Assembly (NCBI GenBank): GCA_937139365.1
Contig: CAKZPT010000079.1
Location: forward strand, 2,581 to 66,580
Origin: an uncultured bacterium
Lineage (GTDB): Bacteria > Verrucomicrobiota > Kiritimatiellia > PWTM01
Direction: 5' to 3'
DNA: 64,000 bases
Shown here one piece after another: positions 5,231 through 45,905 of the stretch. A program made the position numbers and the translations under genes. Each line of letters starts with the position of its first letter. The first letter of the stretch is position 1. The notes under the pieces were generated by a model, which was not told the origin of the DNA, ran no database searches, and saw only the letters and a program-made list of their open reading frames with translations.

Positions 5231-6592
5231 ATGCAAATGAGCGTTTCGCGCGTAGGTCGGCGAGGTTTTTTGGCGGCGGCCACGGCGGGAGCGGCGTTGG
5301 CGGCGGTGCGCGGGGCTCGGGGTGTCGCCGCGCCGCGCCGACGGCACGAATCGGTCCTGCAGTTGGCCCTGCCGAAGATGGAAAAGGTGAGGATCGGGGT
5401 CGTGGGCATCGGCTCGCGCGGCTACGAGGCGGTCCGTCGCCTGTGCCGGATCGAGGGGGCGGAGGTCGTGGCCCTGTGCGACATCCGTCCGGAACGGGTG
5501 GCGGCGGGGCAGCATATTTTGGAGAAGGCCGGCCAACCCAGGGCAAAGGAATACAGCGGCGGTGAGAACGAATGGCACCGGCTGTGCGGCGACGCCGACG
5601 TCGATCTGGTCTACAACTGCACCCACTGGGACCTTCACGCGCCCATCTCCGTTCGCGCGATGCAGGAGGGCAAGCACACGGCCGTGGAGGTTCCCGCCGC
5701 CATCACCCTGGAAGAATGCTGGCAGTTGGTCGAGACGGCCGAGGCGACCCGCCGGCACTGCATGATGCTCGAAAACTGCTGCTACGGCTACACGGAGCTG
5801 ACGGTCCTTCGGATGTGCCGCGAGGGGCTGCTGGGCGAGCTCATCTATGGCGAAGGGGCCTACATCCACGATTTGCGCGCCTTGCTGATGAACGAGAAGG
5901 GGTATTTCAGGATGTGGCGCCTGGAACACCAGCAGAAACGAAACGGGAACCTGTACCCGACCCACGGGCTTGGGCCGATTGCGCAATACATGGGGATCAA
6001 CCGCGGCGATCGGTTCGAGAGCATGGTCTCGATGAGCTCGCGAGAGCGTAGCCTCAGCCTGTACGCCGAGACGCGGTTCCCGCCCGAAGATCCGCGGCGG
6101 AAAACGATCCGCCGCGGGGACATGAACACCTCCATCATCCGCACGGCCCTGGGCCGCACCATCCTTGTCCAGCACGACGTCGTCAGCCCTCGGCCCTACA
6201 GCCGGATCAACCTGATCTCCGGCACGAAGGGCTGCTTCGCGGACTATCCCCCGCGCCTGGCACTAGAGCCGGATGCCCACCAGTGGATCGAAGGCGAGGC
6301 ACTGAAAGAGTATCTGACCAGGTATACGCATCCCCTCTGGCACAAGGTCGGCGAGGAGGCAAAGAAGGTGGGCGGCCATGGTGGAATGGATTTTGTGATG
6401 GACTGGCGGCTGATCCAGTGTCTGCGCAACGGCGAACCGTTGGACCAGAGCGTCTATGACGCCGCCGCGTGGAGCGCGATCGCGCCACTCAGCGAGTGGT
6501 CCGTGGCCCGCGGAGGCGCGCCCATCGAGGTGCCGGACTTCACGCGGGGCGAATGGCAGCGCGTGCCGCCCCTGCCGATCGTCGGCGCATAG
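5231..6592 (+). CDS. Tat-exported Gfo/Idh/MocA oxidoreductase, GH109 (alpha-N-acetylgalactosaminidase-like)
   Basis: Tat signal RRGFL, Rossmann GIGSRG, AVEVPAA, MMLENCCYG, YPTHGLGP, GGHGGMD. AAGGAG RBS. Confidence 0.88.
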   Translation: MQMSVSRVGRRGFLAAATAGAALAAVRGARGVAAPRRRHESVLQLALPKMEKVRIGVVGIGSRGYEAVRRLCRIEGAEVVALCDIRPERVAAGQHILEKAGQPRAKEYSGGENEWHRLCGDADVDLVYNCTHWDLHAPISVRAMQEGKHTAVEVPAAITLEECWQLVETAEATRRHCMMLENCCYGYTELTVLRMCREGLLGELIYGEGAYIHDLRALLMNEKGYFRMWRLEHQQKRNGNLYPTHGLGPIAQYMGINRGDRFESMVSMSSRERSLSLYAETRFPPEDPRRKTIRRGDMNTSIIRTALGRTILVQHDVVSPRPYSRINLISGTKGCFADYPPRLALEPDAHQWIEGEALKEYLTRYTHPLWHKVGEEAKKVGGHGGMDFVMDWRLIQCLRNGEPLDQSVYDAAAWSAIAPLSEWSVARGGAPIEVPDFTRGEWQRVPPLPIVGA

Positions 6593-7025: not shown

Positions 7026-7844
7026 ATGATGAAGATGAATTGGATCGTTGTGGGCGCCGCCGCGCTGGCCGCCGGCTGCATCGAAAGCCGAACCGTGGTG
7101 ACGGTTAAGAACGACGGAAGTGGCCGGATCGTGGTGGAGGAATACATGTCGCCGCAACTGACGGCGATGATGGACCAGTTCAAGGACACGATCGCCCCCG
7201 GCGCAACCAACAAGCCCGCTACAGCCGCCGATCCCCTCGCGATGTTTGCCGACCAGATCGAGAAGAAAAACCGGGAGTTTGGCGGCAAGGCGCGGCTGGA
7301 GAAGAGGGAACCGGCGGCCAACGCTGCCGGATGGAAGGGATTTCGCCTGACCTACGCCTTTGACGACGTCCGCCAGGTTCTGCTCCCGCTCGGAACCAGC
7401 GCCGAGGGCGACGAGGAGAAGCCCTCGGACCGAATGAAGGTCGAGTTCACGCCCGGACAAAAAGCCGTCCTCCGGCTCGTACCGGCGGCCGACGTGGACC
7501 AACCATCCGGTGTCTCCGCCGCGCCGGCCTCTCCCCCGCCGGAGGCGAATCCGCAGATGGCCGCGATGATGGCCCCCATGTTCGCGGGCATGCGGGTCTC
7601 TCTGGCGATCGCTGTGGACGGGCGAATCACCCGCAACGACGGTGGCTACGTCGCCTCCGACGGCAAGTCGGTCACGCTGCTCGATGTGCCGGTCGACAAG
7701 CTGCTGGGCCATGCCGAGGCCATGAAGCTGATGATGGACAAGTCGATTGGGGACGCCGAAAAGGCACGGCTTCTGGCGGGTCTGAAAATTGACGGACTGC
7801 AGGTGACGGACGTCACCCGGCCGGTCACCATCGAGTTCGAATAA
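7026..7844 (+). CDS. Hypothetical lipoprotein (LppM/DUF3153-like N-terminus)
   Basis: Lipobox LAAGC followed by IESRTVVTVKNDGSG. RBS-like AAAGGGG. Strong coding-type codon usage. Confidence 0.7.
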   Translation: MMKMNWIVVGAAALAAGCIESRTVVTVKNDGSGRIVVEEYMSPQLTAMMDQFKDTIAPGATNKPATAADPLAMFADQIEKKNREFGGKARLEKREPAANAAGWKGFRLTYAFDDVRQVLLPLGTSAEGDEEKPSDRMKVEFTPGQKAVLRLVPAADVDQPSGVSAAPASPPPEANPQMAAMMAPMFAGMRVSLAIAVDGRITRNDGGYVASDGKSVTLLDVPVDKLLGHAEAMKLMMDKSIGDAEKARLLAGLKIDGLQVTDVTRPVTIEFE

Positions 7845-21020: not shown

Positions 21021-22328
21021 ATGGAACGCTTTTCGATGGGGATCGGCGACCGCTTCGGCCGCGAAGGCCGCGCTCAACTGGCCGCCTTCGCCGCGGCGCG
21101 AGGCGAGGGGATTGAGGCGACCCCGGTCTGGAACAAGTCGCACCGCGAGCACCGTCTGACCGGGACGGCGCCGATTGACGTCCGTCGCGAGGCCGAAGCC
21201 GCCGTCGCCGCGCTCGGCTGGACCGGCTCGTAGCACGTGGATGTTGATCACATCTGACCCTCAAACGTCCATGCCTTCGTCGAGTGGAGCGATGTTTTCA
21301 CGATCGATGTCGCCGGCGCGATCGGCCGCGAACCGCCAGCCGGGGAGCTGGGCGCATTCGAGGAGTTCCTTCGCGCGCACCTGCCGGCGACGGTCGAGCT
21401 GCCCGACGGGACGCGCGCGCTCGACCCCGCCCGCGTGGCCGTCGCGGCGAGCGCATGTCTGGAGGCCGCCCGCGAGGCGGCCGCCACATGTGCGCTGATC
21501 CGTGAGGGGGCCGGTGACCGCGCGGTTCACATCGAGGTCTCGATGGACGAGACCGACCGCCCACAGTTGCCCGAGCACCTGTTCGTCATTCTCGCCGCGC
21601 TTGCCCGGTTCGGGGTTCCGGTTCGGACCCTGGCGCCGCGATTTCCCGGAGCGTTTCACAAGGGCGTGGACTACCAGGGGGATATCGAGGAGTTTGCCCG
21701 CCATTTCACCGCCTGCGTCCAGGTTCTCCGGACGGGCCGCGAGGTCTTCGGACTTCCGGCCGATTTGCGGTTGAGCCTCCACTCGGGCAGCGACAAATTC
21801 GCGCTTTATCCGGCCATTCGCGACATCCTGCGCCGGACCGGCGCCGGCCTCCACGTGAAGGCCGCAGGCACGACATGGCTGGAGGAATTCGCGGGGCCGG
21901 CGGCCGCCGGCGGCGGCGCGCTCGCGCTGGCCAAGGAGGTGTACCGGCAGGCCTGGCCGGCATACGAGGAACTCGTCGCGCCCTACGCCGCCGTGGTCGA
22001 CATCCGCCGCGAACGGCTCCCGTCGCCGGATGAGATCCGGCGGTGGTCGGCGGCCGAATTTGTCGCCGCGGTCGTCCACGATCCCACCAACCCCGCGTTC
22101 CAGCCCGACCTTCGCCAGTTTCTGCACGTGGCGTACCCGGTGGCGGCCCGGATGAGCGCCGAGTTTCTCTCGGCCCTCGACGCGCACCGGTCGGAGATCG
22201 AGCCGCGCGTCACGTCCAACCTGCTGGTCCGGCATTTGCGCCCCTGTTCGCCCCCGAAGCGCCGAGCGGTTCGCCCACTCTCGGTGCAAGGGGGCTGCTT
22301 GCGCAATCTGCCGCCGAGTGGAAGCTAA
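21021..22328 (+). pseudogene. uxaE: Tagaturonate/fructuronate epimerase (UxaE family) with two in-frame stops
   Basis: SMGIGDRFG, PVWNKSHREH, then S*HVDVDHI*PSNV (TAG 21231-21233 and a TGA 8 codons later), FTIDVA, EVSMDETD, APRFPGAFHKGVDY, SLHSGSDKF, HVKAAGTTWLEE. Confidence 0.85.
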
Positions 22329-22338: not shown

Positions 22339-22385
22339 TTCCAACCCTTGGATAGTGTGACGGTCAGGAGTTCCAATCATTGAAA
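22339..22385. repeat. Palindromic repeat array 2: 2 x TTCCAA-N3-TTGGAA-like, 32-bp period
   Basis: TTCCAACCCTTGGAT at 22339-22353 and TTCCAATCATTGAAA at 22371-22385. Confidence 0.8.
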
Positions 22386-22409
22386 ACCACAGACCTCGGC
22401 CCCGCGCGG

Positions 22410-23723
22410 ATGGACCGCCGCCGTTTTCTCACGATGGGCGCCACGGCCGCCGCGGCGGGGGCGACCGGCTGCGTGACCAATCCGGTGACGGGAAAATCGG
22501 AGTTTTCCCTCATTGGCCCCGACGACGAGGTGCGGATGGATCGCACCAACGCGCCGCATCAGATTTCGGCCGATTACGGCGTGCTCCTCCATCCCGCCGT
22601 TCGGTCGTACGTCGAGTCGGTGGGGCAGAGTTTGGTCGCCGTGTGCCACCGTCCCGGCATGCCCTACTCCTTTCGTCCGGTCTACGCCTCCTACATCAAC
22701 GCGTACGCGTTCCCCGGCGGCACCATCGTGGCCTCGCGGGGCATCCTGCTGGAGCTTGAAAACGAGGCCCAACTGGCCGGGCTGTTGGGCCACGAGATCG
22801 GGCACGTCTGCGCGCGCCACACCGCCAAACGGATGACATCGGCGATCGTGACGCAGCTGGCCGTGGCCGGCATCGCGGCGGCGATCGAGGCCAAGGGGCA
22901 CGGGAACACCGCCGCCGTCGTCGCCGGCCTTGGGGCGGTGGCGGGCGGTGCGCTGCTGGCCCGCTACAGCCGCGACGACGAGCGGCAGGCCGACGCCCTC
23001 GGCATGGAGTACATGGTCAAGGCCGGCCACAACGCCGAGGGCATGGTCGGCCTGATGGACATCCTGCTGCGTCAGGAGAAGCACAAACCATCTGCGCTCG
23101 AGATGATGTTCGCCACTCATCCGCTTAGTCGCGAGCGGCGCGACACGGCCGCGGAGCGCGCGCGCACGACGTGGGCGGCCGGCGCCGGGCTGCCGCTCGG
23201 ACGGGAGCGTTTCATGGACGCGACCGCCCCTCTGCGGCCGATGAAGCCGATCGTGGCTGCGGTGCAGCGGGGCGACGAGTCCATGGCCCGCGGCAACCCC
23301 GGCGAGGCCAAGCCCGCCTACGCCGCCGCGCTGGCCGCCGGTCCGGAGGACTACGAGGCGCTGCTGAAAATGGCCGCCTGCTGCATCGCGCTGGGCCGCC
23401 CCGGCGAAGGGCGTCCCTACGCTCAGCGCGCCCGCGCCGCCCATCCCGACGAACCGCAGGCCCTGCACGTCCTCGGGATGATCGCCCTCTTGACGCGCCA
23501 GCCGGACCAGGCCCACGAACACTTCGTGGAGTACGAGCGGCGGCTGCCCGGCAACCCGGCGACGGTCTTTCTCGACGGCCTTGCGCTGGAGCGAATGGGC
23601 CGCCGGCAAGAGGCCGCGCGGCGTTATCTCGAGTTCCTCCAATCCGGCGCGCAGGGGGACGAGGCCAACCACGCGCGCCATCGGCTGATCGAGTGGGGCG
23701 TCATCCAGCCCGCCGCCAAATGA
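22410..23723 (+). CDS. M48 family metalloprotease with TPR repeats (Tat/lipoprotein signal; BepA-like)
   Basis: DRRRFL plus GATGC lipobox, [29 protein letters not shown]-terminal TPRs. Confidence 0.88.
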
Positions 23724-33048: not shown

Positions 33049-33391
33049 GCAGTGACGCGAATAACCGCGCATCGTCACAAAAAACCGCCTCGGCAGATCT
33101 GTTTCGTGGGCCGTGCAACTGAGGTCCGTCTCCGTCGAGTGGCCGGAATGATAGGTTGCAGATGCGGCACGGACGTCACAAATTCGGGGCAGCCATCGTT
33201 CATGAATTGGCGACCATTTAAGATTCCGGTTCTCCGAAAGATGGGGCCGGCTGGAGGCGGCTGGGCCCCCGGCACAATTGACAAACAGGGTCGAATGCAT
33301 GCGGCCATTCGACGTGCCATGAGCACTCCGAACAAGCCGGCCCAGTTTCAGGATCTGGGCAAACCCTACGAGTGCTGCGATCGCAGCGCTC

Positions 33392-36017
33392 ATGGCGCTC
33401 CACGGGGCGGCGGCCAATCCGATCCAGCTCCCATCGCCCGACGACCACCGCCTGTCCCTCGTCCCGCTCCTGCTGCTAGCGCCGGGCGACGAGATTTGCG
33501 CGACCGGGGCGGTTGCCAATCTTGGCGTCGCCCCTATCGAGGCGCTGACTGAATGGGAGATTCGCTACGATCCCTTGTTGGACGCCTTTCCTCTCCCCCT
33601 TCTCGGTCCGGATCTCGCATACGGCCGGCCGAGTTGGACGGAAATCGACGGACAACTTGCTGAGAGCAATTCGTTGACCGATGGCCGTGCGTACACGACG
33701 CGCGAGCCGTCGCTCCGTCGCGAGGGATATCGCGAAAGCCGTTCAAACGGTGAATCTATAGGAAAGTGGTCCCCATCGTCCGCATCGAATATCTGGCCGG
33801 CGACGCGAACTGGATCTGGCGCAGGGACGTCCAAGCGTCCGAGGACGGCCGACAATGGACAGAGCTGATGCGAGATTTCGACGCCCACAAAAAGTGGGGA
33901 CGTGTAGCGCTGCCGATTTTCGGACCGGTGTCGGATCGCTATGTCCAGTGGCGTGTGCACCGCGGTGGCAGCCCCATGGACGTCGTGCGTTGTCCGGCGG
34001 AAATGCGGGTGTACGTGGCCTCGCCGCCGGCCCCACCGCCCTGGAAAGAGGCGCCCGTCGAACAGGGCTTGGTTCGTGTTCGGGCAAAACCGCCTGGCGA
34101 GCCGAGCCGGGCCTGTGGCGAATGGCCGTGCGGATGCGTTCCGGCGGTCGCGGATGCTGCCCGGACATGGGTGATGGTGGCCGGAGACCCGCCGTCCACG
34201 ATGGCCGAGGCGTCGCGGTTTGGCATCAACGGCTCCAACACCAAGATGGCGCCCCTTTTGCGTCGACCCGGGATTCGATGGGTCAGGTTTGAAAACCTAA
34301 AGTGGCCGATGGTGTCTCCGGGGTCGGCCGAGTTCCGCTTCGACGGATCCGTCGGTCCCCGTGGCGCGTCCACCATGACGCCATTCTGCAATGCTACCGG
34401 GAGGCCGGTCTCGACGTGCTGCCGTTTTTGTTCATGACCGCTCCCCACGCCAGCTCGCCCCCCGCCGACATCACGAACCGGCAGCGCCGGATGTTTTACC
34501 TGCCCAGCGACGACTCGGAGTTTGCGGAATACGCGTTCCAGACGGCGGCGCGATACGGGACGCGGCCACACCCGGTGGGGGCGCTGCGGACACCGGACGG
34601 GCAGTCCGGCCTCGGATGGCTGACCGTTTACGAAATCTGGAACGAACCGAACCTGTCAGATCCGCGATGAGGAGCATGGGCGGTTCGTTGGACCGGTATC
34701 TGCTGTTGCCTCGCGCGGCGGCGGAGGCCGTTCGCCGCGCCGATCCCGCCGCGAAAATCGCCAATGGCGGGTTTGCGGGCGTGGACGTGGACACCGTCGA
34801 CCCCCTCCGCGTTTTCCTATCCCGACGGGCGCCGTCCGCTCGATTTCATCGACATCCTGAACGTCGGTTGTTACACCGGACGCGAGGCTCCGGAGACCGC
34901 CCTTGAGGATTTCAACGCCGGCGGCGCCGGCGAGCTGCCCCCGCCGAAACAATTCCGCCGTCTCGCGAGGTGGCGCGATCGGAACAAGCCAGGGATGCCC
35001 ATCTGGCTGACGGAAACAGGGTACGGCTCGGCCGGCCCCTTCGGAACCGACGAGCGCACCCAAGCGGCCCGCCTCCCGCGGATGGTCATGCTCGCGCTGG
35101 CTAACGGAACGGACAAGGTGTTCGTGTACCGCGAGAGCTGATCCACGCCCGCCAAGCACGCTGCCTCGGCATTGGTCCGCAACGACGGCACGATCAAACT
35201 GTCCTTTCTGAGCTACGCAACGCTGGTGCGCAGGATGGACGGAGTACGCGGAGATGCGGTGCCGCTATCCGTCGGCGACTCCAATGTGGTGGCGCTGGTC
35301 TGGGAGTCCAGGACCGCCGCGCCGCCGATCACGGCCTGGACCATCGAGGACCATCCAAGACGCCTGGAACTCGACCTCGGCGAGGCGGCCGTCTGCGATG
35401 CGTTCGGGTGGTGCATGACGGTCGCCTGTGCGACGGGGATCGAACTGTCGATCTTTCCTCTCTACATCCGGCCGAACGTGCGGACCGATGGGATGGTCCG
35501 GGCTATGGCGCGCGCCTTGGAGGACCGGCGGCGGAACGAAATGGCGGACGCGGAGCTTGGACGCCGGAGAGGATGGGTGTTCAATTTTGGTCCGGAAACC
35601 CATCGCATGTTTCGGTGGATCGGCGTCGAACGCGAGGTCGTCAGCGTGCCCGCGGCCACGGTGTTCGAGGACGGCCGCGGATACGGTTGGTTTGGTCGGC
35701 GTGACCGCCGCGTCCGACGGCCGGAGGCCGTGGGCCAGGGACCCCATGGAACGGACTCTCACGTCCGCATCGCTCCCAAGGGGCGGTTTCGCGTCCTCAC
35801 GGGCCCCTGGCGATTCATGTTGAGGGTTTCTGCTGAACCAGCAGGGACCACGGGCATGACGGCCGTTTCCGATGCCAAGGAATGGTCCGTTCCCTTCAGC
35901 GCCAGCATCCGGCCATCTCGACCTCGTGTTCGCCGGATGGTCCGCGCTGCATTGGTTGTCGCTGCTCGAAAAACCATCGCCTTGAGTAAGTGCCACAACG
36001 ACACTTCTTGGCTGTAG
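33392..36017 (+). pseudogene. Heavily degraded clan GH-A (GH39/GH5-like) glycoside hydrolase with accessory beta-sandwich domains
   Basis: Fragments in several frames: discoidin-like piece (SEDGRQW), GIRWVRFENLKW, YEIWNEPN (acid/base), KIANGG, PIWLTETGY (nucleophile), in-frame TGA 35139-35141, FNFG...GYGW domain. Boundaries approximate. Confidence 0.65.
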
Positions 36018-36126
36018 AGTCACTGCGCCAGAGTGCCATTATGGCTTGCTCTTGGTGACAGTCAAATTGTTCTTAATTCACCATCAATAATTTATCCATG
36101 TATACATGCGTGGCATGTCTGTTGCT
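35988..36126 (+). promoter_or_regulatory. Sigma-54 promoter with IHF site and putative enhancer (UAS) palindromes
   Basis: TGGCATGTCTGTTGCT at 36111-36126 (GG-N10-GC). IHF-like ATCAA-N4-TTA at 36083-36094 in an AT-rich tract. GTGCCA-N3-(T/C)G(G/A)C dyads at 35990 and 36033. Confidence 0.75.
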
Positions 36127-36181
36127 GTCCAGCTTGATGGATCGCATAAGGCGAACCAGAGAGAACGCGGAGGTGATCAGG

Positions 36182-36607
36182 ATGATGCTGAACAGTGCAT
36201 GGTGGGATCCGATGGCGGAACTGGCGAGGTTCCAGCGGGAGATGAATCGGCTGATGGATGCCTTTTGCCAGTCCAGCGACCTGTTCCCGCGCGTCAATGC
36301 GTGGGCGGACGATAACACGGTGGTGGTTCGCGCCGAAGTGCCTGGGGTGGACCCGGCCTCGCTGAAGGTCTCGGTGGCCAGCGATGTCTTGACTCTGGAG
36401 GGGGAGCGGTCGGAGGCGACTCCGCCGAACCTTCGGGAAGCGCATCGTCAGGAGCGGGCTGCCAGGACCTTCTCTCGGTCTCTTCGTCTCCCCTGGGAGG
36501 TCGAGGAAGGTCAGGTGAAGGCCGTGCAGAAGAACGGCGTGCTGACGGTCACCCTGCCGCGGCGGGAATCGACGAAGCCCCGGCCGATCGCGGTGACCGC
36601 AGAGTGA
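36182..36607 (+). CDS. Hsp20/alpha-crystallin small heat shock protein 1
   Basis: FPRVNAW, RAEVPGV, RQER...FSRSLRLP, KNGVLTVTLP. GGAGGTGA RBS. Confidence 0.92.
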   Translation: MMLNSAWWDPMAELARFQREMNRLMDAFCQSSDLFPRVNAWADDNTVVVRAEVPGVDPASLKVSVASDVLTLEGERSEATPPNLREAHRQERAARTFSRSLRLPWEVEEGQVKAVQKNGVLTVTLPRRESTKPRPIAVTAE

Positions 36608-36623
36608 GTTTGGAGGTGACACC

Positions 36624-37022
36624 ATGAACAATGCGAAGGAATTGCAGGTGCAGAGGGTAGAACCCCGGCCGGTGGATGCCACGCGGAATCGCCCCGTCTG
36701 CCGTCCGGATACGGACATCTATGAAACCGACGAAGCGATCGTGGTGGTGGCGGACCTGCCCGGGCTCGATCAGTCGAATGTGACGGTCGAATACCAGGAC
36801 GATGTGCTCACGGTCCGCGGTCACGCGCCGGCGCCGCCCGCCGTCCAGGGCGAACCGCTGTTCCGCGAGTTCGTGGATCGCGATTTCGAGCGCTCGTTTT
36901 CGATCAGCGCCGCCATCGACCGTGACCGGATCAGCGCGCGGATGAAGCACGGGGTCCTGACGGTGACCCTGCCGTTCGCGCCGGAAGTCCGGCCGAAGCA
37001 GATCGCTGTGACGTCGGATTGA
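36624..37022 (+). CDS. Hsp20 small heat shock protein 2
   Basis: PDTDIYET, ADLPG, FERSF, KHGVLTVTLP. Confidence 0.92.
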   Translation: MNNAKELQVQRVEPRPVDATRNRPVCRPDTDIYETDEAIVVVADLPGLDQSNVTVEYQDDVLTVRGHAPAPPAVQGEPLFREFVDRDFERSFSISAAIDRDRISARMKHGVLTVTLPFAPEVRPKQIAVTSD

Positions 37023-37041
37023 TGTAGAAAGGAGGAAAACG

Positions 37042-37548
37042 ATGAGCCGCAGTCTGATTCCGTGGCGCCGACGCGCGCCCGCGCCGGCGCGGGTCGAGGA
37101 CAATCCGTTCGAGGTCCTGCACCGCGAGATGACGTCGTTGTTCGACGGTTTCTTCCGCGAGTTCGAACAGGCGTTCCGCGGTTGGCCGGGCCTCGCCCGG
37201 GGCGGCGGACCCGCGCTCGCACCGGCGGTGGATGTCTCGGAGACGGACGACGAGGTCCACATCGCCGTGGACCTCCCCGGCCTGACCGAGAAGGACGTCG
37301 AAGTCAGCATTGACGACGACGTGTTGGTCGTCCGCGGCGAGAAGAAGCAGGAACGAGAGGAAAAGAAGCGCAACTATCATCTCCTCGAGCGCTCCTACGG
37401 GCGTTTCGAGCGGCAAGTGGAGCTCCCGGGCGGGCTCGATCTCGACCGCGCGGGCGCCAAATTCAAAAACGGCGTGCTAACCGTGACCCTGCCAAAGCGT
37501 CCAAACGCTCAGTCCCGTCGACGCACCATCGAAGTCCGGGAGGAATAA
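37042..37548 (+). CDS. Hsp20 small heat shock protein 3
   Basis: PAVDVSET, DLPGL, ERSYGRFER, FKNGVLTVTLPK. Confidence 0.93.
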   Translation: MSRSLIPWRRRAPAPARVEDNPFEVLHREMTSLFDGFFREFEQAFRGWPGLARGGGPALAPAVDVSETDDEVHIAVDLPGLTEKDVEVSIDDDVLVVRGEKKQEREEKKRNYHLLERSYGRFERQVELPGGLDLDRAGAKFKNGVLTVTLPKRPNAQSRRRTIEVREE

Positions 37549-37562
37549 TCCACTTCTGCCTG

Positions 37563-37587
37563 GCCGCGCGGCCCCCCGCGCGGCTCT
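37563..37587 (+). terminator. Putative hairpin terminator after the sHSP cluster
   Basis: GCCGCGCGG-CCCC-CCGCGCGGC, perfect 9-bp stem with a weak U-tract. Confidence 0.5.
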
Positions 37588-37660
37588 CGTCGTATACAGA
37601 CGGGTCGGCCGGGTGCGCGATCCCTAGTCGCTTCGGCACCCAACCGGGGACCGACGCGGC

Positions 37661-39019
37661 CTACGCGGGCGGAGCCTTGGGAACGTGGCCCAGTTCCATC
37701 GCGTCCGCCGCCATTTGCCGCGCGCGGCGGATCGATCGCTCGGCCGATTCATGCAACTCCGCCCAAGACAACGGTCGCCGGGCCACACCCTCGACCACCG
37801 CCTGCGTGCCGACGTCGGCCGCCTCGCGGGGAAACACCTCCCAATCGTCCATCGTCGGCAGAATCCGGTCGACCGAGAGACGGGGGCCGACGGATCCTGC
37901 CAGCGAACGGGCCGCGGCCAGGCACATCGTGTCGGTGATGGTGCGTGCCCGCACGTCCAGGACTCCTCGGAAAAGACCGGGAAAACACAGCGAGTTGTTC
38001 ACCTGGTTGGGAAAATCGGAGCGGCCGGTCGCGAAGACCGCCACGCCGGCCTCCGCGGCCTCCCAGGGCCATATCTCGGGAACGGGATTTGCGCACGCAA
38101 AGACGATCGCGTCGCGCCGCATGGTCCGCAGCCACTCCGGCCGGATCGTGCCGGGGCCGGGCGTCGAACAGGCGATGACGACGTCGGTGTCCCGGATGGC
38201 CTCCGGAATGCCGCCCGTCCGTCCTTCCGCATTCGTCTCGAGGCAGAGCCGCCACTTGGCGGCGAACCGATCCCGCACCGCCTCCACATCGCGCCGGTCG
38301 CGCCCCAACAGGCCGCGGCTGTCCACTACGTAACACCGGCCTGGATCGGCCCCGGAGGCCATGAGCAGCCGGGCGGCCGCCGTGTTGGAGGCGCCCGCCC
38401 CGATCAGCGCAATGGCGACATCGCCGATCCCCTTGCCCACCACCTTCAGCGCATTGATCAGTCCGGCGAGGATCACTGTCGCCGTCCCCTGCTGGTCGTC
38501 GTGCCAAACGGGAATCTCGGCCTGCTCGCGCAACCGGTCCAACACCTCAAAGCACGACGGCTGGGCGATGTCCTCCAGGTTGATGCCGCCGAACGAGGGT
38601 TGGATCGCCAGTACGAAATCCACGAGGGCCTGCGGCTCGTGCAGATCGACCACAAGGGGCACGGCGTCCACTCCCCCGAGGTATTTGAACAACAATGCCT
38701 TCCCCTCCATCACAGGAAGCCCCGCCGCCGGCCCGATATTCCCGAGGCCCAGTACACGGCTGCCGTCGCTGACCACGGCCACCGTGTTGCCGCGATTCGT
38801 GTGGTCAAAGACCCGCTCCGGCCTTTCCGCGATGTCGCGGCAGGGAGCGGCGACGCCGGGCGAATACCAGATCGCGAAGTCGTCGAAGCCGGCCACGCGG
38901 CATTTGATGCCAGTCTCGACCTTGCCGCGGTAAAAGGGATGCAGCCGCATCGCCTCGCGGGCTGGCGCCTCCGCCCGCGCCCGCAGTTCCGCGCCGTTGT
39001 CCGCCGGGTTGCTGTTCAT
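37661..39019 (-). CDS. NAD(P)-dependent malic enzyme
   Basis: WYSPGVA, DGSRVLGLGNIG, PVMEGKALLFK, GGINLEDI, WHDDQQGTA, GRSDFPNQVNN. Confidence 0.93.
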   Translation of the reverse strand: MNSNPADNGAELRARAEAPAREAMRLHPFYRGKVETGIKCRVAGFDDFAIWYSPGVAAPCRDIAERPERVFDHTNRGNTVAVVSDGSRVLGLGNIGPAAGLPVMEGKALLFKYLGGVDAVPLVVDLHEPQALVDFVLAIQPSFGGINLEDIAQPSCFEVLDRLREQAEIPVWHDDQQGTATVILAGLINALKVVGKGIGDVAIALIGAGASNTAAARLLMASGADPGRCYVVDSRGLLGRDRRDVEAVRDRFAAKWRLCLETNAEGRTGGIPEAIRDTDVVIACSTPGPGTIRPEWLRTMRRDAIVFACANPVPEIWPWEAAEAGVAVFATGRSDFPNQVNNSLCFPGLFRGVLDVRARTITDTMCLAAARSLAGSVGPRLSVDRILPTMDDWEVFPREAADVGTQAVVEGVARRPLSWAELHESAERSIRRARQMAADAMELGHVPKAPPA

Positions 39020-39125
39020 TGGTTGATTTCGTCCCGCCATCGGCCGCGGGCCGCAAGAGCATGACCGATGCCCGCCCGTCTGCCGACCACGGCGCCGGCG
39101 CCGTCGGATGGAATGCCGGCGGCGG

Positions 39126-40040
39126 TCACCCCTGCCATTCGGTCTTGTCCACCGTGGTCTGGAAGTCCGCGACGACGACTGCCGGAGCCTCTTCGCCGGC
39201 GGTCGCCGCTAGGTCGCTGGGCGTGGGCTTGCCCACGTAGATCAGCCCGTGCATCGGACATTTCTCGACGGCCTGGTCCACCCCCTCCATGTGATCGGGG
39301 TCGTATGCATCGTAGTCGATCACCGGCAGGTGTCCGTCGGTGAACTGGAACACGGGGCTTCGCTTCCCGCACGCACGGCAGCCGATGCACCCGACGGTGC
39401 AGACGTCCTTGACCTCCTTACCGAAATCCTTGTTCGAGCAGGCGATCACGAGCATCCGGTCGCGCTTGAAGGGCACCATCGTGATGATATTGCGTGGACA
39501 CACCCGGGCGCAGGCGCCACAACCGGTGCACGCCTCGTAGTTTACCACCGCCAGTCCGTCGCGGATGTGGATGGCGTCGAACTCGCAGGCCCGCACACAG
39601 TCGCCGAGGCCAAGGCATCCGTAGACACACCCCTGAACGCCGGCGACGAGATTGGCGGCCGCACAGCTCGGCTCGCCGCGGTACTCCGCCCGCTGCAGCC
39701 GCTCGTTCAGGCTGGCCCGGCAATGGACCACCGGACGCCGCGGCCACGACGGCTTGAGCTCGACCCCCATGATCGCCGCAACCGCGGCCGCACACGAGGA
39801 GCCACCGACGGGACACTTGTCCGGCAATTCGCCGTTCAGCACGACCGCCTCTGCATAGCTGGCGCACCCGACGTAGCCGCATCCGCCGCAGTTGGCGCCC
39901 GGAAGCTCGCCCAGCACCGCCTCGACCCGCGGGTCGACCTCCACGTGCAGAGCGTCCTTCGCCCACCCCAACACCCAGCCAGCGCCCACCGCCAGCACCA
40001 ACATGGAACCGCCCGCCAGTCCGATGACCAAAAGATCCAT
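39126..40040 (-). CDS. rnfB: Rnf electron transport complex subunit B (polyferredoxin with N-terminal TM), stand-alone
   Basis: VEVDPRVE, LPGANCGGCGYVGC, CPVGG, CVYGCLGLGDCVRAC, CTGCGACARVCP, CIGCRAC. Confidence 0.9.
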   Translation of the reverse strand: MDLLVIGLAGGSMLVLAVGAGWVLGWAKDALHVEVDPRVEAVLGELPGANCGGCGYVGCASYAEAVVLNGELPDKCPVGGSSCAAAVAAIMGVELKPSWPRRPVVHCRASLNERLQRAEYRGEPSCAAANLVAGVQGCVYGCLGLGDCVRACEFDAIHIRDGLAVVNYEACTGCGACARVCPRNIITMVPFKRDRMLVIACSNKDFGKEVKDVCTVGCIGCRACGKRSPVFQFTDGHLPVIDYDAYDPDHMEGVDQAVEKCPMHGLIYVGKPTPSDLAATAGEEAPAVVVADFQTTVDKTEWQG

Positions 40041-40167
40041 ACGGTCCAGTCTAACGTGCCCTGTCCGACCGGCCAAGCCGGCCCGGCTGCCGGTGTGCCG
40101 TCCCAGCGCCGTCTCCGATCGCCGCCGTCGTTGATCCCCTCCCCGGCCGCGCGGCGCGCCCCGTTGC

Positions 40168-40196
40168 TTGACCTACCCCGCCGACGGACCTAGCCT
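40168..40196 (+). promoter_or_regulatory. Putative sigma70 promoter
   Basis: TTGACC-N17-TAGCCT. Confidence 0.5.
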
Positions 40197-40222
40197 TCTA
40201 CCGCCAGCGCCATGGAGGCCCG

Positions 40223-41098
40223 ATGACACCCCTATTCCTCAGCCGCCGGCAATTTCTGGCCGCAAGCGCGGCGGCCGGCATCGCCCCAGCCGGACGCACC
40301 GCCGCCGAACCGCGCCGTTTCCTGTTCGGCGCATGTCAGGCGCCGGACCGTCTCGCCTTGCTCAAGGAGGCCGGCTACGACTTCCTCGAGGCCGACGTCG
40401 CCGGCCTTCTGATGCCGGCGAAGCCCGACGAGGAGTTCGACCAGAAGACCGCACGGTTTCTGCCCCTCCCCATTCCGATTCGCTCGTGCACCGGCTTTTT
40501 CCCCCACTCGATTCCACTGGTGGGACCCAGCGTGGACATGGCGGCGATCGAGCGGCACGCGGCCACCACGTTCCGCCGCGCCCGGCAACTGGGCATCTCG
40601 TTCATCGTCCTCGGCAGCGGGGGTTCGCGCAAGATCCCAGACGGCTTCGATCCGGCCCGCGCCCGCGAGCAATTCATTGAGGTCGGCCGTCGGCTGGGCC
40701 CGCTGGCGGAGCCCTGCGGCGTGACGGTCGTATTGGAACCGCTCAACCGCGGCGAAACCAACTTCCTCCACACCGTCGAAGAGGGCATCGGAGTAGTTGA
40801 CGCCATCGCCCACCCCAACGTGCAGCTGCTGGCCGACTTCTACCACATGTTGAGGGAGGACGAGGGGCCGGCGTCGATCGAAAAGGCGGGCGCGCGGTTG
40901 CGCCACTGCCACATCGCCGAAAAAAAGGACCGGGCCGCGCCTGGCACGTCAGGCGAGGATTTTCGGCCATTTTTTCACGCACTCAAGAAGATCGGGTACG
41001 CCGGCGGGGTCTCGATCGAGGGCAGATGGAGCAAGGACCTCGCCGCCGACCTTCGTCGCGCGCTGGAGACGATGCGCCGTCAGGCCGCCGAGGCTTGA
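40223..41098 (+). CDS. Tat-exported sugar phosphate isomerase/epimerase (xylose-isomerase-like TIM barrel)
   Basis: SRRQFL Tat signal, GYDFLE, GSGGSR, LEPLNRGE, DFYHM, HCHIAE, SIEG. Confidence 0.85.
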   Translation: MTPLFLSRRQFLAASAAAGIAPAGRTAAEPRRFLFGACQAPDRLALLKEAGYDFLEADVAGLLMPAKPDEEFDQKTARFLPLPIPIRSCTGFFPHSIPLVGPSVDMAAIERHAATTFRRARQLGISFIVLGSGGSRKIPDGFDPARAREQFIEVGRRLGPLAEPCGVTVVLEPLNRGETNFLHTVEEGIGVVDAIAHPNVQLLADFYHMLREDEGPASIEKAGARLRHCHIAEKKDRAAPGTSGEDFRPFFHALKKIGYAGGVSIEGRWSKDLAADLRRALETMRRQAAEA

Positions 41099-41106
41099 AA
41101 AACCTC

Positions 41107-43135
41107 TTACCCTCCGTGAAGGGCGGGGCGGGCGAGCTCGACGACCACCGCGCAGGGCCGGTCGTGGGGGCGGTCCAACAGGAACATGGCCTGCCATTTT
41201 AACGGCGGGTCGGGGCGGCCGTTTTGGTCGCCGCCCCACCAGTGGGCCCCGTCGGCGAACAGGCTCAGCCGGATCCACGTCCACTCGCCGTCGCGCGTCA
41301 GTTCGGCGGCGCGCGCCTGGAAGACCTCCCCGCTGCGGTCCTCAACGCGACAGGTGATCCGGCACGGATCGCCGACCGCGCGCGCCCAAAGGCCCAGCAC
41401 CTCCGGCACGCCCTGGACGGACGCCGCGTCGGGCGCGGAGGGCTGCACCGGAAAATAGGCATAGCCGGTGTCGGTGGTCACGGCGACGCACAGCGCCGGG
41501 CACGTCCACCCGGGCAGAAGCCCTTCCGCTGCGATCGCCCGCGCTTTCGCCCCATGGCGGGGTGCGGGGCGGCCGTCGGAGTTCATACGAACGCGATACC
41601 GGGCCGGATCGAACGGCTGGATCGGCCGCCAGCGGGGGGCATCGGCCTGCGCGATGACGACCGATTCGAGCCATACCTCCGCCCGCGACACGGCGGCCGG
41701 CGCCGGCCGCCGCACCACGACGCGTCCGGAGGGGAGGTCCAGCTCGTGGCGGGTCGCCGTCCCGTCAGCGCCGGCGATGCGCAGGGCGGCGCGAAGCGGC
41801 GGCCCGAACCCTTTCTCGACAATCGCCACCATGTTGTCGTCCGAGGGGCCGGGCGCGACATCCAACGACGTGACGCGCCCGTCGGACCAGTCCCACTGTG
41901 TGGGGCGCTTCAATTCGCCCACGGCGGCGGCGGGCACCGCGATATAGCACGGTGCGTCCGTCAGCCGCACCACGGCGTCGTTGCCCACGCGCGCCGGCGC
42001 GCCAAGGTGTCCCTCGAGAGGCGCACCGACCATGGATGCCGGCAGGCGCAGGTCGGCGCCGCCAGGATCGAGCGTCCACGCGGCCAGCCGCCAGCCGTGG
42101 GTCTCGCGATACAAGAGGACCCAGTCGGCGGGCCTCGATCCGCCGTCGATCCGGGGCAGCGAACACCGGCGATCGAACCGGGCGTCGCCCAGGTGCCGGT
42201 GAAGCGTCACGGCGGCCACATCGGCCGGCTTCGGTGCGAACGCCGGCACGGCGTTGGTGCGCCAGCGATGGGCGACCACGCCGAAATGATGTTCCGGGTC
42301 CTTCGGGTCCAACCCGTCGTCGCGCCAGTCGTACCAGATGGACAGCGGAATGCCGCAAGCCGCGTTGACCAGCCATTCCCGCGGCAACAGGCGCCCCTGG
42401 CGGTCGGCATCAAATTCCTCCCAGACGGCGGAATAGCCCCACTCGCCCGACAGGATGGGCACGGACCGTCCCGAGGGCGCGTATCGGGCGATCAGGTCCC
42501 GCAGCCGTCCGTACTCCGCCGCCACGGTTTCAGGGTCAGTCCGGCGGTAGGGATCACGGTCACGGCGTGCCAGTGCTCCAGCAGGCCGCCACGGAAGCAT
42601 TCCTCGAGAAAGGCCCAGTCGATTTGCGAGACGGCGGGGCCGACGAGCCGCTCCTCCGGCGCGGCGGCGCGCACCTCGCGCGCGACGGCGCGCGCCAGCG
42701 CGATGTAATCGGTGACGTTGGGCGCCGGCTTCCAAAACTTTCTCAGGTTCGGCTCGTTCCAAAGTTCCCAGAGGTGTCCGCGGCCGCCGCCCACCGCGCG
42801 AAAGCCGCCCGTCCCTCTTCCGTGCGCGGCGCCTCGCCGTTGTCGTAATGGGGGTTGCCGTAGTCAAGGATCCAAAGCGCCCGCAGCCGATGGTCCGCGA
42901 GGGTGGCCGCCAGCCGGTCGTACGCCGAAAAATCGTACTCGCCGCGCCGCCGCTCGATCGCCGCCCAGAACATGTCCATCCGGACCCAGCCGACGCCCGT
43001 CGCCGCAAGGGTCTCCATCTCGCCCGGCCGCGGATCGGTGAAATGGATGTTCACGCCGCGTTCGTCGCCGCCGAAAACGCCGGCCGCGGCGGCCGCCCAT
43101 ACGGCCGCGCAAAATCGCCATCGGGTCCGGAGCAT
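41107..43135 (-). pseudogene. Clan GH-A (GH5/GH39-like) glycoside hydrolase, two frameshifts
   Basis: Frame 1: signal peptide, GVNIHF, WVRMD, ILDYGN. Frame 2: WELWNEPN. Frame 3: PYRR..PE, PILSGEWGYS, SIWYDW. Shifts near 42785 and 42555. Confidence 0.75.
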
Positions 43136-43238
43136 GCCGTTCTCTCCGACTTCGGTTTGTCCGGCGGCTCGTCATGACTTACCTTTTCCTCGCTTCGCCG
43201 CCGGTCCGGCGGCACTATAGCAAAGCGAGGAGGATTCG

Positions 43239-43970
43239 ATGAACATGCATCGCGCGATCGCGCTGGCGGCCGCATCGGCGGCGATCAGGGTGGCAGCGGC
43301 CGACCTGAATCCAGCCGCGGTCCCGACCGATCGGATGACCAACGAATGGTGGGCGAAACGCCACGAGGCCAAACTGGCCGACCCGGCCCGCGCCGGCTGC
43401 CGGCTGCTGTTCCTCGGCGACTCGATCACCCAGGGATGGGAGGGGCCGGGGAAGGCCGTGTGGGACCGCTACTACGCCCACCGCGCCCCGTTCAACCTCG
43501 GGTTCAGCGGCGACCGGACCGAGCATGTCCTCTGGCGCCTGGACCACGGCGAAATCGACGGCATGTCGCCGGAGTTGGTCATCCTAATGCTCGGCACGAA
43601 CAACACCGGTCACCGGAAGGATCCGCCCGACCACACGACCGAAGGCATGAAGCTGATACTCGATCGCCTGACCCGCCGGCTGCCTCAGGCCAAGGTCCTC
43701 TTGCTGGCGGTCTTTCCCAGGGAGGCGCGCCCCGATGGAGAGCTGCGCCGCATCAACGACGCACTCAACGAGCGGCTCAAGGCATTGGCGGATGGCGAAC
43801 GGGTGATCTTCGTGGACATCAATGCGAAGTTCCTGGCGCCCGACGGCTCGCTCCCGACAGAGATCATGCCCGACTTCCTTCACCCGAAGGAACAAGGCTA
43901 TGCAATCTGGGCCGCCGCCATCGAGCCGTGGGTGTCGCGGATCCTCGGCGACACGCCCGTGGCGCCCTGA
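43239..43970 (+). CDS. SGNH/GDSL hydrolase (PAF-acetylhydrolase Ib-like, possible carbohydrate esterase)
   Basis: FLGDSIT, NLGFSGDRT, LGTNN, DFLHP. Signal peptide. GAGGAGG RBS. Confidence 0.9.
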   Translation: MNMHRAIALAAASAAIRVAAADLNPAAVPTDRMTNEWWAKRHEAKLADPARAGCRLLFLGDSITQGWEGPGKAVWDRYYAHRAPFNLGFSGDRTEHVLWRLDHGEIDGMSPELVILMLGTNNTGHRKDPPDHTTEGMKLILDRLTRRLPQAKVLLLAVFPREARPDGELRRINDALNERLKALADGERVIFVDINAKFLAPDGSLPTEIMPDFLHPKEQGYAIWAAAIEPWVSRILGDTPVAP

Positions 43971-43990: not shown

Positions 43991-44101
43991 TTCCCGGTCT
44001 CGGACACCGAACGGCGTCAGGTTTCCAAAGATTGGGCGCACTTCGCCGCGAAGTGTCCAACCATTGGACACACCTCGCCGGCCGGCCTCCAAGGATGGGA
44101 T
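43991..44101. repeat. Palindromic repeat array 3: 3-4 x TTCCAA-N3-TTGGAA-like, 32-bp period
   Basis: Degenerate TTCCCGGTCTCGGAC at 43991, TTCCAAAGATTGGGC at 44023, GTCCAACCATTGGAC at 44055, CTCCAAGGATGGGAT at 44087. Confidence 0.85.
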
Positions 44102-44135: not shown

Positions 44136-45905
44136 CTATTCCTCGACCAGCGTGCGGATGTGAACTTCCCGAAGCTGGCGCGGATCCACCCGCGACGGGG
44201 CGTTCATCATCAGGTCCACGGCCTTCTGCGTCTTCGGGAAGGCGATCACGTCCCGGATCGAGGCGGCGCCGACCATCAGCATCACGAGGCGGTCGAGCCC
44301 GAGGGCAATGCCCCCGTGCGGCGGCGCCCCGTAGCCGAGCGCCTGGATCAGGTGGCCGAAGCGATCGGCGATCTCTTCGTCTGGGAGGCCGAGCCGGCGG
44401 AACATCCGCTGCTGCAGCTCGGGATCGTGGATCCGGATGCTGCCGCCGCCCAGCTCCACACCGTTGAGCACGATGTCGTAAGCCAGCGCGCGCACGGAGA
44501 GCGGATCGGAGTCGAGCCGATCGAGGTCCTCGGGGTGCGGCGCCGTGAACGGATGGTGCATGGCCTGAAGGCGGTTGTCCTCGCCGCGCTCGAACAGGGG
44601 AAATTCTGTGATCCAGACGAACGCCATCGCATCGCCCGCGAGGGCGCCGGCCAGCTCTCCGCACATCAGCCGCAGGCGGCCCAGGAAGGGGTGGACCTTG
44701 TCCGCCTCGTCTGCGGCGAAGAGCACCAGATCCCCGGCCCGGATGTCGAGGCGCGAGGCCAGCTCGGCTTTCTCCCCCTCGCTGAGAAACTTCACGATCG
44801 GGGATTTCCAGGAGCCGTCCGGCTGGACGCGGATATGGGCGAGGCCGCCGAAACCCGACTGTTTGGCCAGTTCCGTCCATTCGTCGGTGACCCTCAACGG
44901 CACCTCGGCCAGGCCGGTGGCGTTGATGGCTTTCACGACATGCCCGCGCTCCACCGCCTGGGCGAACAGCTTGAAGGAGCTGCCCCGGAAGATGTCGGTC
45001 AGGTCGGTGATCGCCAAGCCGAACCGCAGATCGGGCTTGTCGCTGCCGTACCGGCTCATCGCCTCGGCGTAGGGCATCCTCGGAATCGGCGATGGGGGTT
45101 CGGGCCGGCCGGCGGCGCGGCAGACGTCCGCGAGCAGGCCGTCGACGAGGGTGTAGATGTCCTCCGGCTCGATGAACGACATTTCGATGTCGATCTGCGT
45201 GAACTCCGGCTGGCGATCCGCGCGAAGGTCCTCGTCCCGGAAGCAGCGCGCGATCTGCATGTAGCGATCCATGCCGGCCATCATCAGCAGTTGTTTGTAC
45301 TGCTGCGGCGCCTGCGGCAGCGCATAGAACATGCCCGGGTTGACCCGGCTGGGCACCAGGTAGTCCCGCGCCCCCTCCGGCGTGCTCTTGGTGAGGATCG
45401 GCGTCTCGATCTCGAGGAATCCGAGGCGATCGAAATACCGGCGCGCGGCCATCACGATGGCGTGGCGCTGCGCGAGGTTGGCCTGCATACGGGGTCGGCG
45501 CAGGTCGAGGTGGCGGTGGGTCAGTCGCAGGTCTTCCGCAACTCTGGCGGCCCCGGCGTCGTCCAACGGAAACGGCGGCGTGCGGCTTCGGTTGAGCAAT
45601 TGGATCGCCGATCCGCGAACCTCGATGGCGCCGGTCGCAAGGTTCGGGTTGACCATGTCCGCCGGTCGCGGCTCGACCACGCCTTCGACCCGTACGACGT
45701 ATTCCGGCCGGGCCCGCTGGGCCTGCTCCCAAGCCGACTGCGAATCGCGGGGGTCGTACACCACCTGCGTGATGCCGTAGCGGTCGCGCAGGTCGATGAA
45801 CACCAACCCACCGTGGTCGCGGACGGTGTCCACCCACCCGCACAACGCCACGCGCCGGCCGGCGTCGCCGATCCGCAGATCTCCGCAGGTATGGGTCCGC
45901 ATCAT
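44136..45905 (-). CDS. aspS: Aspartate--tRNA ligase
   Basis: MRTHTCG, RDHGGLVFIDLRD, KSTPEGARDYLVPSR, CFRDEDLRADRQPEF, GAPPHGGIALG. Confidence 0.97.
   Translation of the reverse strand: MMRTHTCGDLRIGDAGRRVALCGWVDTVRDHGGLVFIDLRDRYGITQVVYDPRDSQSAWEQAQRARPEYVVRVEGVVEPRPADMVNPNLATGAIEVRGSAIQLLNRSRTPPFPLDDAGAARVAEDLRLTHRHLDLRRPRMQANLAQRHAIVMAARRYFDRLGFLEIETPILTKSTPEGARDYLVPSRVNPGMFYALPQAPQQYKQLLMMAGMDRYMQIARCFRDEDLRADRQPEFTQIDIEMSFIEPEDIYTLVDGLLADVCRAAGRPEPPSPIPRMPYAEAMSRYGSDKPDLRFGLAITDLTDIFRGSSFKLFAQAVERGHVVKAINATGLAEVPLRVTDEWTELAKQSGFGGLAHIRVQPDGSWKSPIVKFLSEGEKAELASRLDIRAGDLVLFAADEADKVHPFLGRLRLMCGELAGALAGDAMAFVWITEFPLFERGEDNRLQAMHHPFTAPHPEDLDRLDSDPLSVRALAYDIVLNGVELGGGSIRIHDPELQQRMFRRLGLPDEEIADRFGHLIQALGYGAPPHGGIALGLDRLVMLMVGAASIRDVIAFPKTQKAVDLMMNAPSRVDPRQLREVHIRTLVEE

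Follow-up and report, generated by a model that had tools for sequence, protein, structure and literature searches.

Helically phased pairs of a 15-bp dyad in an uncultured bacterium and its relatives: putative sites for a symmetric DNA-binding protein

NrdR boxes and NtrC enhancer sites are palindromic pairs placed about 31-32 bp, or three helical turns, apart and bound by a dimer of dimers. The parS, matS, Noc and SlmA sites are also palindromic and dimer-bound and number tens per chromosome, and CRISPR repeats measure 23 bp or more and form long arrays accompanied by cas genes. In the work on Ss-LrpB, dyads of ~15 bp are described whose centres are two or three turns apart, with the dimers on one helix face and a cooperative binding accompanied by DNA wrapping (PMC2995911). 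Repetitive extragenic palindromic (REP) sequences of Proteobacteria (PMC3733652) are imperfect palindromes of 20-40 bp carrying a GTAG (or CGTC) tetranucleotide at one end; they are dispersed, mostly downstream of genes with some inside genes, and form clusters with alternating linkers. Here we describe a 15-bp dyad, KTCCAA-NSN-TTGGAM, that occurs at three loci in a stretch of 64,000 nucleotides (the window, meaning the whole stretch of DNA analysed) on contig 79 of the 2.83-Mb assembly of an uncultured bacterium (117 contigs, 69% G+C, 97% complete; the source genome, G000). A first-pass annotation of the window had noticed the dyad at these loci with start-to-start distances of exactly 32 bp, and had proposed either phased sites for a cooperatively binding dimeric protein, possibly parS/matS-like, or a family of the REP/BIME type (BIME, bacterial interspersed mosaic element) spread by a HUH transposase.

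The nearest kin of this element are the REP/BIME families in distribution and the tandem operators of the Lrp, NrdR and NtrC types in geometry, but it departs from each of them in the features that define them. The dyads stand on one helix face three turns apart, as for Lrp/AsnC, but Lrp sites cluster at promoters and not genome-wide past stop codons. Two boxes three turns apart are also the geometry of NrdR and NtrC, although the sequences are unrelated and those boxes serve few promoters, whereas 72 arrays without functional theme are found here. The parS, matS, Noc and SlmA sites are single and often restricted to one region of the chromosome, in contrast to phased pairs that are evenly spread in a relative assembled in four contigs. 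The repeat-spacer layout, the exact period and the unrelated spacers are those of CRISPR, but the repeat measures 15 bp and the spacer 17 bp, two repeats make up 65 of the 72 arrays, and these occupy about 72 separate loci. The stem TTCCAA/TTGGAA differs from that of an intrinsic terminator in not being G+C-rich and in having no T-run after it in the source genome. With the REP/BIME families (PMC3733652), the element shares short palindromes scattered over the genome in numbers from tens to thousands, a copy number that differs widely between relatives and, in these relatives, arrays lying mostly past stops and at times inside genes, in clusters with alternating linkers; it differs from them by its shorter unit, by the absence of a tag and, in motif-rich genomes, of a Y1/RAYT gene (RAYT, REP-associated tyrosine transposase), by the exact three-turn spacing, by unrelated spacers, by the lack of compensatory variation and by one core across many families. 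In agreement with the first-pass annotation, which knew of no published description, a limited literature search (without supplements and most subscription journals) returned no account of the motif or of such repeats in the class, nor was this combination of dyad length, phasing, unrelated spacers, missing transposase and widely shared core found described.

Abundance, phasing and paired unit of the dyad

Six sites with at most two mismatches are present in the window, against a mean of 0.43 in 100 dinucleotide-preserving shuffles, none of which reached six. Over the whole source genome, the dyad was found 130 times at one mismatch or less and its reversed control six times. The sites comprise 58 exact, 72 one-mismatch and 45 two-mismatch copies, and the reversed, scrambled or N2/N4-gap controls gave 0-1, 0-6 and 15-55 copies in these three classes, respectively. 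Among the sites with up to two mismatches, the distance between neighbours was 32 bp in 75 cases and 31 bp in three cases, no other distance fell below 200 bp and 37 were longer. The motif is thus enriched over its background in the window as in the genome, the 32-bp peak (75 of the 78 short distances) holds genome-wide, and the earlier extrapolation from the window to many arrays is confirmed by the 72 arrays of two or more dyads counted in 2.83 Mb. After in-phase extension, these arrays consist of 65 pairs, six triples and one quadruple, and the next in-phase 15-mer beyond them scored no better than out-of-phase controls. The predominance of pairs, together with this lack of in-phase excess, indicates that the pair is the unit in the source genome.

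To describe the bases involved, a logo was built from 75 pairs of the source genome with 25-bp flanks. Its consensus is K-TCCAA-N-S-N-TTGGA-M, with five inner bases nearly invariant in each half-site and a central base that is G or C in 74 of the 75 first dyads. No common sequence is present in the 17-bp spacer or in the flanks, where the information does not exceed 0.25 bit. A weak bias to A/C (M) at position 9 and to G/T (K) at position 39 of the pair indicates that the pair as a whole has a two-fold symmetry.

The first-pass annotation had also stated that substitutions often preserve the symmetry of the dyad, which the counts contradict. Over 150 array dyads of the source genome, positions 1 and 15 were T/A in 64, T/C in 28, G/A in 28 and G/C in 12 cases, without association between the two positions (odds ratio 0.98, p = 1). 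In the inner five pairs of 137 partner dyads, 25 one-sided non-pairing changes and seven G.T changes were recorded, and a single change out of the 33 was compensatory. Since the changes in the half-sites are independent and uncompensated, the bases themselves appear to be read, half-site by half-site, and this variation fits a symmetric protein on duplex DNA and not a stem kept only for its pairing.

Taken together, the exact phasing, the symmetric pair unit, the independent half-sites, the drifting spacers and the long retention at some loci (see below) point to a symmetric protein with a second dimer three turns away. We infer from these data both protein binding and the oligomeric state, and propose that the dyads are selection-maintained, helically phased sites in double-stranded DNA for a putative dimer-of-dimers protein; on the sequence evidence, we set the probability of this reading at about 0.5. 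The dyads would be high-affinity recognition sites in duplex DNA for a symmetric (dimeric), sequence-specific protein reading two 6-bp half-sites, and two dimers placed three turns apart on the same helix face would touch, a dimer of dimers on the 47-bp pair being the probable functional unit in the source genome. In the relatives, the same contact could recur every 31.5 bp wherever 3 to 7 or more dyads follow one another. The DNA along the long arrays would probably be bent or wrapped, and the phased A/T tracts of most lineages would favour the bending round the protein. The sites would be kept through host selection and would not be copied as a mobile unit. The cooperatively binding dimeric protein suggested earlier is supported indirectly by the exact spacing, the alternation of 31 and 32 bp and the invariant core beside random spacers, and further by the uncompensated half-sites and by cores kept while the orthologous spacers diverge. 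The sharpness of the motif should make the putative binding protein easy to fish out.

Distribution in relatives and orthologous loci

The number of single dyads (at most one mismatch) in 41 genomes of the same class ranged from 2 to 2316, with 0-26 for the reversed controls; G019 and G020, with 221 and 205 sites, are examples of motif-rich genomes. When 301 class genomes were screened for the pair as a 47-base pattern (at most two mismatches, 32-bp spacing only), the paired motif was detected in 113 of them, and the controls gave none in all but three genomes. The pattern is frequent in families f1 (13/14), f16 (13/14), f17 (19/21), f24 (11/12), f10 (3/3) and f27 (5/5) and rare in f12 (2/33), f23 (1/19), f25 (1/22), f29 (3/22) and f30 (0/15). 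The three richest genomes hold 1728, 521 and 425 pairs, and the third of them measures 2.5 Mb. In a collection with one genome per bacterial or archaeal species, the exact pair was found in at least 119 stretches, and the 80 matches listed are all metagenome-assembled genomes (MAGs) labelled Kiritimatiellia/-ae/-ales, Lentisphaerae, Verrucomicrobia or 'uncultured bacterium'. Judging from these titles, the class that shares the paired motif is probably Kiritimatiellia, and the pair could serve as a practical marker, the matches listed being confined to these labels.

Longer arrays refine the period. Where 4-7 dyads stand in a row in G034 and G023, distances of 31 and 32 bp mostly follow each other in turn, which corresponds to a period of 31.5 bp, or three turns of 10.5 bp. 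The sequences flanking the dyad are lineage-specific, with TTT(TT)-dyad-AAA(AA) in most families, AAAAC-dyad-GTTTT in G034 and AATTC-dyad-GAATT in G003. Beside the dyad arrays of G034 (L165, L173-L176, L003) stands a G+C-rich, terminator-like hairpin repeat, ttcTCCCGCC-nnn-GGCGGGAtttggaagtttt, which has the AAAAC/GTTTT flanks in common with the dyads. Among motif-poor genomes, no other phased dyad was found in a small sample of 200 kb of G028 and 53 kb of G024; the 200 kb of G028 (L221-L230) contain an unphased palindrome of their own, CGCACCC-N3-GGGTGCG, in about 10 copies.

The congeners of the source genome have coding DNA 67-79% identical to it, and the collinearity of genes within the genus breaks down every few kilobases, also where no arrays stand. 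Positions 24000-43900 of the window, for instance, map to 6-7 separate places in each of G001-G003, at 66-79% DNA identity. The idea that arrays mark synteny breakpoints proved uninformative: the flanks of G003 arrays map apart on the source genome, but an array-free 20-kb stretch is equally scrambled in G001-G003. When the flanks of 41 G003 arrays were mapped on the source genome by tblastx, nine had dyads at the orthologous gene edge, where about 2.4 coincidences are estimated by chance from array density. One of the nine is pair 2 of the window, which has in G003 a counterpart just upstream of the orthologous M48 peptidase gene, with an unrelated spacer. For three orthologous intergenic pairs of the two genomes, 59 of 60 inner-core positions are identical, compared with 19 of 51 in the spacer and 88 of 240 in the 40-bp flanks. 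At C18:3681, both genomes carry a pair within conserved coding sequence. Pair 3 had no counterpart at the orthologous genes of G001, G002, G004 and G006, and its query had no match in G003. Farther away, the ihf-hisS gene pair occurs in G023 (L237) and G019 (L252), members of different families, at positions of about 130-220, with a three-dyad array 6-15 bp past the hisS stop in both and unrelated spacers. This coincidence, in 2 of 30 loci, is suggestive, yet it may be due to chance given the preference for 3' ends.

Position relative to genes and rival explanations

In the relatives, the genes of which also come from a home-made caller with rough starts, the arrays stand close to stop codons. 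In one high-copy MAG (23 loci, 176 kb), 47 of 55 arrays are intergenic, and in tandem regions 24 of 30 are nearer the upstream stop (p = 0.0014), the median distances being 23.5 bp to that stop and 120.5 bp to the start that follows; eight convergent cases sit tightly between two stops. The other 96 loci gave 96 intergenic arrays and 35 in called coding sequence, with 39 of 59 arrays of tandem regions nearer the stop (medians of 27 bp to the stop and 77 bp to the start). In the four-contig assembly of G004, arrays occur over the full length of the large contigs C1 and C2 and are on average 99 kb apart on C2; a parS/matS-like arrangement is not in agreement with this spread of about one array per 100 kb along both contigs without regional cluster. 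For the 19 intervals on C2, the coefficient of variation is 0.63, a spacing somewhat more even than would be expected at random.

The stop-proximal sites of high-copy relatives, together with unrelated gene neighbours and the even chromosomal scatter, suggest an architectural role, at the borders of units or domains, as the most likely one. The bound protein would serve as punctuation of transcription units or nucleoid domains, as an insulator, roadblock or anchor, and not at the operators of a regulon; we infer this role tentatively, and the punctuation is possible though less likely than not. In the same tentative manner, it could be imagined that in a large clade of Kiritimatiellia a putative oligomerising protein on phased dyads at the ends of transcription units punctuates genes by roadblock or insulation, replacing intrinsic terminators and REPs. 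If true, punctuation would be as dense as one array every few kilobases. Few members of this poorly studied class are in culture, and sites marking the ends of operons or domains would offer a direct route to chromosome and transcription-unit organisation in the Planctomycetes-Verrucomicrobia-Chlamydiae group.

Several observations weigh against a symmetric protein acting in this way. In the source genome, where a self-trained hexamer caller gave 2622 genes (87% coding) with rough start positions, 15 arrays of tandem regions are nearer the upstream stop and 16 nearer the downstream start, so that in the absence of a stop bias the punctuation role rests on the relatives. As RNA or single-stranded DNA, any of the dyads can fold into a hairpin too, which says little since it follows from the palindrome, and the five inner pairs vary little, which limits the covariation tests. 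The copy number, from 0 to 1728 pairs per genome of the class, looks like the proliferation of a repeat, and in G034 arrays recur with their spacers (a 63-bp super-unit) and flanks and end many contigs, indicating that whole arrays were recently copied in that genome. No binding protein was found among the candidates examined (Lrp/AsnC, IHF-like, HU-like). The phyletic pattern of Lrp/AsnC does not fit: a search for its orthologue gave no match in the motif-rich G019 and G020, and the gene is present in the motif-poor G024, G031-G033, G035 and G039. The only full-length Lrp/AsnC gene of the source genome has no dyads nearby, and the second AsnC_trans_reg match there is a stand-alone RAM-domain open reading frame (ORF) without helix-turn-helix. 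Autoregulation by the IHF-like protein was rejected because the pair stands upstream of the IHF-like gene in the source genome only and in none of 29 other genomes; IHF-like genes are nearly universal in the class. The HU-like protein, found in 293 of the 301 class genomes, does not discriminate either.

With copy numbers that span a thousand-fold range and arrays that were copied in G034, the main rival stays alive; in it, the dyads are a REP/BIME-like selfish repeat amplified by a putative non-RAYT enzyme and tolerated downstream of genes, where it does little harm. The arrays of relatives past stops and between convergent genes would fit such a repeat, as would copies within genes, a location reported for REPs (PMC3733652). 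However, the spread by a HUH transposase proposed in the first-pass annotation is not supported, and neither is the co-occurrence with RAYT/TnpA that it had offered as a check: Pfam Y1_Tnp (PF01797) has no match in the motif-rich G000, G001-G003, G006 and G034 and 2-21 matches in many motif-poor genomes, and neither GTAG nor CGTC tag is present in the logo of the 75 pairs with their flanks. The sharing of sequence over the whole unit, a feature of REPs, is seen in G034, where spacers and flanks recur, and not in the source genome; the downstream location of REPs, likewise, is found in the relatives and not there. The same 12-base core is found across many families, and orthologous cores are conserved in randomised surroundings. 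At C32:5917, a called ORF, putatively that of a methyltransferase-like protein (S-adenosylmethionine), includes a pair in its reading frame; if this reading is right, the dyads would have arisen in place there and not through insertion. A phage origin is not supported, the exact pair being carried by only two viral contigs of the whole collection. We consider the selfish repeat unlikely, although protein sites and repeat may both be true at once, as argued for REPs.

The location of arrays within about 25 bp past stops in high-copy relatives raises a second alternative, an element acting at the RNA level, where tandem hairpins of the 3' untranslated region would serve termination, protection of the 3' end or a dimeric RNA-binding protein. 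Hairpins of 6 to 9 bp are formed by the single dyads on folding, and the arrays fold well below shuffles in six of seven sequences (z = -2 to -6), but the seventh folds no better than shuffles (z = +0.51). The AAAAC...GTTTT flanks of G034 look like a weak two-way terminator and are shared there with the G+C-rich hairpin described above. In contrast, exact spacing at the helical repeat is a property of duplex DNA, the core changes are compensatory once in 33 and the outer pair varies independently. The stems are A+T-rich in a genome of 69% G+C, with no T-run after them, and in most families the T-run precedes the dyad and the A-run follows it. In an 8-kb locus with four arrays, eight terminator-like sites were counted against 11.3 +/- 4.1 in shuffles, none of them at an array. 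The arrays of the source genome, moreover, are near starts as often as near stops. These data make an RNA element quite improbable and are more easily reconciled with a protein on duplex DNA.

Operators of a global transcription factor, with tandem promoter-proximal sites over a large regulon, were considered next to the genes that start beside arrays of the source genome. These include guaB, hisB, aroA, nadE, ddl, a kpsF-like gene and ahpC (by Pfam), as well as the IHF-like gene, a bactofilin gene and glycosyltransferase genes; serA, carA and a glpD-like gene were named from translations only. Pairs lie 5-130 bp upstream of the starts of serA, carA, hisB, guaB, aroA, nadE, ddl and the M48 peptidase gene, and the last is retained in G003. 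Lrp-type regulators use tandem dyads three turns apart (PMC2995911). But the 54 of 72 arrays that are intergenic do not prefer regions bearing promoters, since they follow the background: 17 and 14 stand in the two types of tandem regions, 11 in divergent and 8 in convergent ones, for 403, 398, 294 and 138 gaps, respectively, convergent gaps holding 8 of 50 arrays and making up 138 of 1233 gaps. About 12 arrays are well inside called ORFs, and those of relatives adjoin stops. A common regulon was rejected: across 119 loci, the proteins encoded downstream of arrays include no recurrent family, the largest cluster having two near-array members, and 30 array-downstream proteins of the source genome are diverse and without common theme, roughly one third of the downstream proteins being without Pfam family. 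Enhancer sites for sigma-54 were also rejected, with five sigma-54-like promoters (consensus GG-N10-GC) within 300 bp of arrays against 3.4 expected, which further separates the dyads from NtrC sites. A regulon of this kind is very unlikely.

The even spread of the arrays along the chromosome and the lineage 'dialects' of the flanks (AAAAC/GTTTT, TTT/AAA, AATTC/GAATT) could also be those of a self-recognition signal fixed by molecular drive, such as a DNA-uptake sequence for a competence receptor. ComEC is indeed found in 41 of 41 genomes, but for this reason it does not separate motif-rich from motif-poor ones, and the source genome has only about 72 arrays. To our knowledge, neither strict 32-bp pairing nor a strong bias to intergenic regions characterises the uptake sequences described so far, and we hold such a signal to be extremely improbable.

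Two other candidates were tried and rejected. The dyad resembles the Fis core motif, but a stand-alone Fis was not retained, all three HTH_8 matches lying in long frames of 475-631 aa. Loops of the CsrA type, with GGA as their familiar motif, are not retained since the central triplet varies and is GGG, CCC, GGC or GCC in G004. As a separate observation, HU-like, Lrp/AsnC and aminotransferase genes form a cluster at G000:C66:96246-97582 (the aminotransferase named from its translation), and by coordinates the HU-Lrp adjacency is also present in G001-G003, G008, G011, G013 and G014.

Features of the window and neighbouring repeats

The dyads of the window and the genes that flank them are collected in Table 1.

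Table 1. Coordinates of dyads, second motif and flanking genes in the window
Feature	Position	Strand	Details
Dyad pair 1: TTCCAAGCATTGGAA + 17-bp spacer + TTCCAAGGATTGGAA	6675..6721		Both exact; starts 6675/6707, 32 bp apart
Dyad pair 2: TTCCAACCCTTGGAT + 17-bp spacer + TTCCAATCATTGAAA	22339..22385		One mismatch per dyad; starts 22339/22371
Dyad pair 3: TTCCAAAGATTGGGC + GTCCAACCATTGGAC	44023..44069		The reported locus; starts 44023/44055
Probable decayed third dyad CTCCAAGGATGGGAT	44087..44101		In phase at +32 bp; mismatches at 3 of 13 specified positions
Doubtful fourth dyad TTCCCGGTCTCGGAC	43991..44005		In phase at -32 bp; 4 of 13 mismatches
Second motif YGYCTGTCCCCA, two copies	6830-6841 and 6884-6895	+	109 and 163 bp from pair 1
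GH109-like oxidoreductase/glycosidase gene	5270..6592	+	Pfam Glyco_hydro_109_C, E = 1.5e-52
Flanking gene without Pfam family	7026..7844	+	Gene call and Pfam search
UxaE-like gene	21435..22328	+	Pfam UxaE, E = 4e-35
M48 peptidase gene with TPR repeats	22380..23723	+	Pfam Peptidase_M48, E = 3.6e-32
GDSL-like lipase gene	43239..43970	+	Pfam Lipase_GDSL_2, E = 2e-33
Aspartyl-tRNA synthetase gene (aspS)	44136..45905	-	Pfam tRNA-synt_2, E = 5.1e-119, plus GAD and anticodon OB fold

The three loci of the first-pass annotation are all present as pairs, each with the exact 32-bp distance. Pair 1 lies 82 bp past the stop of the GH109-like gene and 304 bp ahead of the next called gene, and pair 2 between the UxaE-like gene and the M48 peptidase gene, the start of which is likely the in-frame ATG at 22410. 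The third locus, between the convergent lipase and aspS genes as annotated, had been described as an array of four dyads, and this holds in part. Both dyads of pair 3 have two mismatches to the strict pattern TTCCAANNNTTGGAA, and one and none to the degenerate consensus KTCCAANSNTTGGAM. The score of the dyad at 44087 beats all 288 out-of-phase control flanks, whereas that of the dyad at 43991 was equalled in 2 of the 288. The locus is thus read as a solid pair beside which one further dyad is probably decayed and another is doubtful. The palindrome CACTTCGC-C-GCGAAGTG noted in one of its spacers is present.

A second motif, YGYCTGTCCCCA (often GTGCCTGTCCCCAWTTT), has 27 copies in the source genome, 25 of them intergenic. 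Twelve of the 27 have a dyad array within 300 bp, where random intergenic positions would give 1.24 and the maximum in 500 trials was five. In 881 kb of array loci from other genomes the motif was found twice, once within 300 bp of an array, and the array loci of G003 contained no copy. Several degenerate copies cluster in long, A+T-richer intergenic regions.

Within the window, the sole Rfam match at the gathering threshold is a tRNA gene at 20464-20545. Positions 33000-36600 give a weak coding signal in the gene caller and have a G+C content of 0.58-0.67, against 0.69 for the genome. Elsewhere in the source genome, a repeat reading ...CCGTACCGGCAGGAGTGTCTGTCCCCAG recurs near the ends of contigs C22, C67 and C86, in places twice in tandem.

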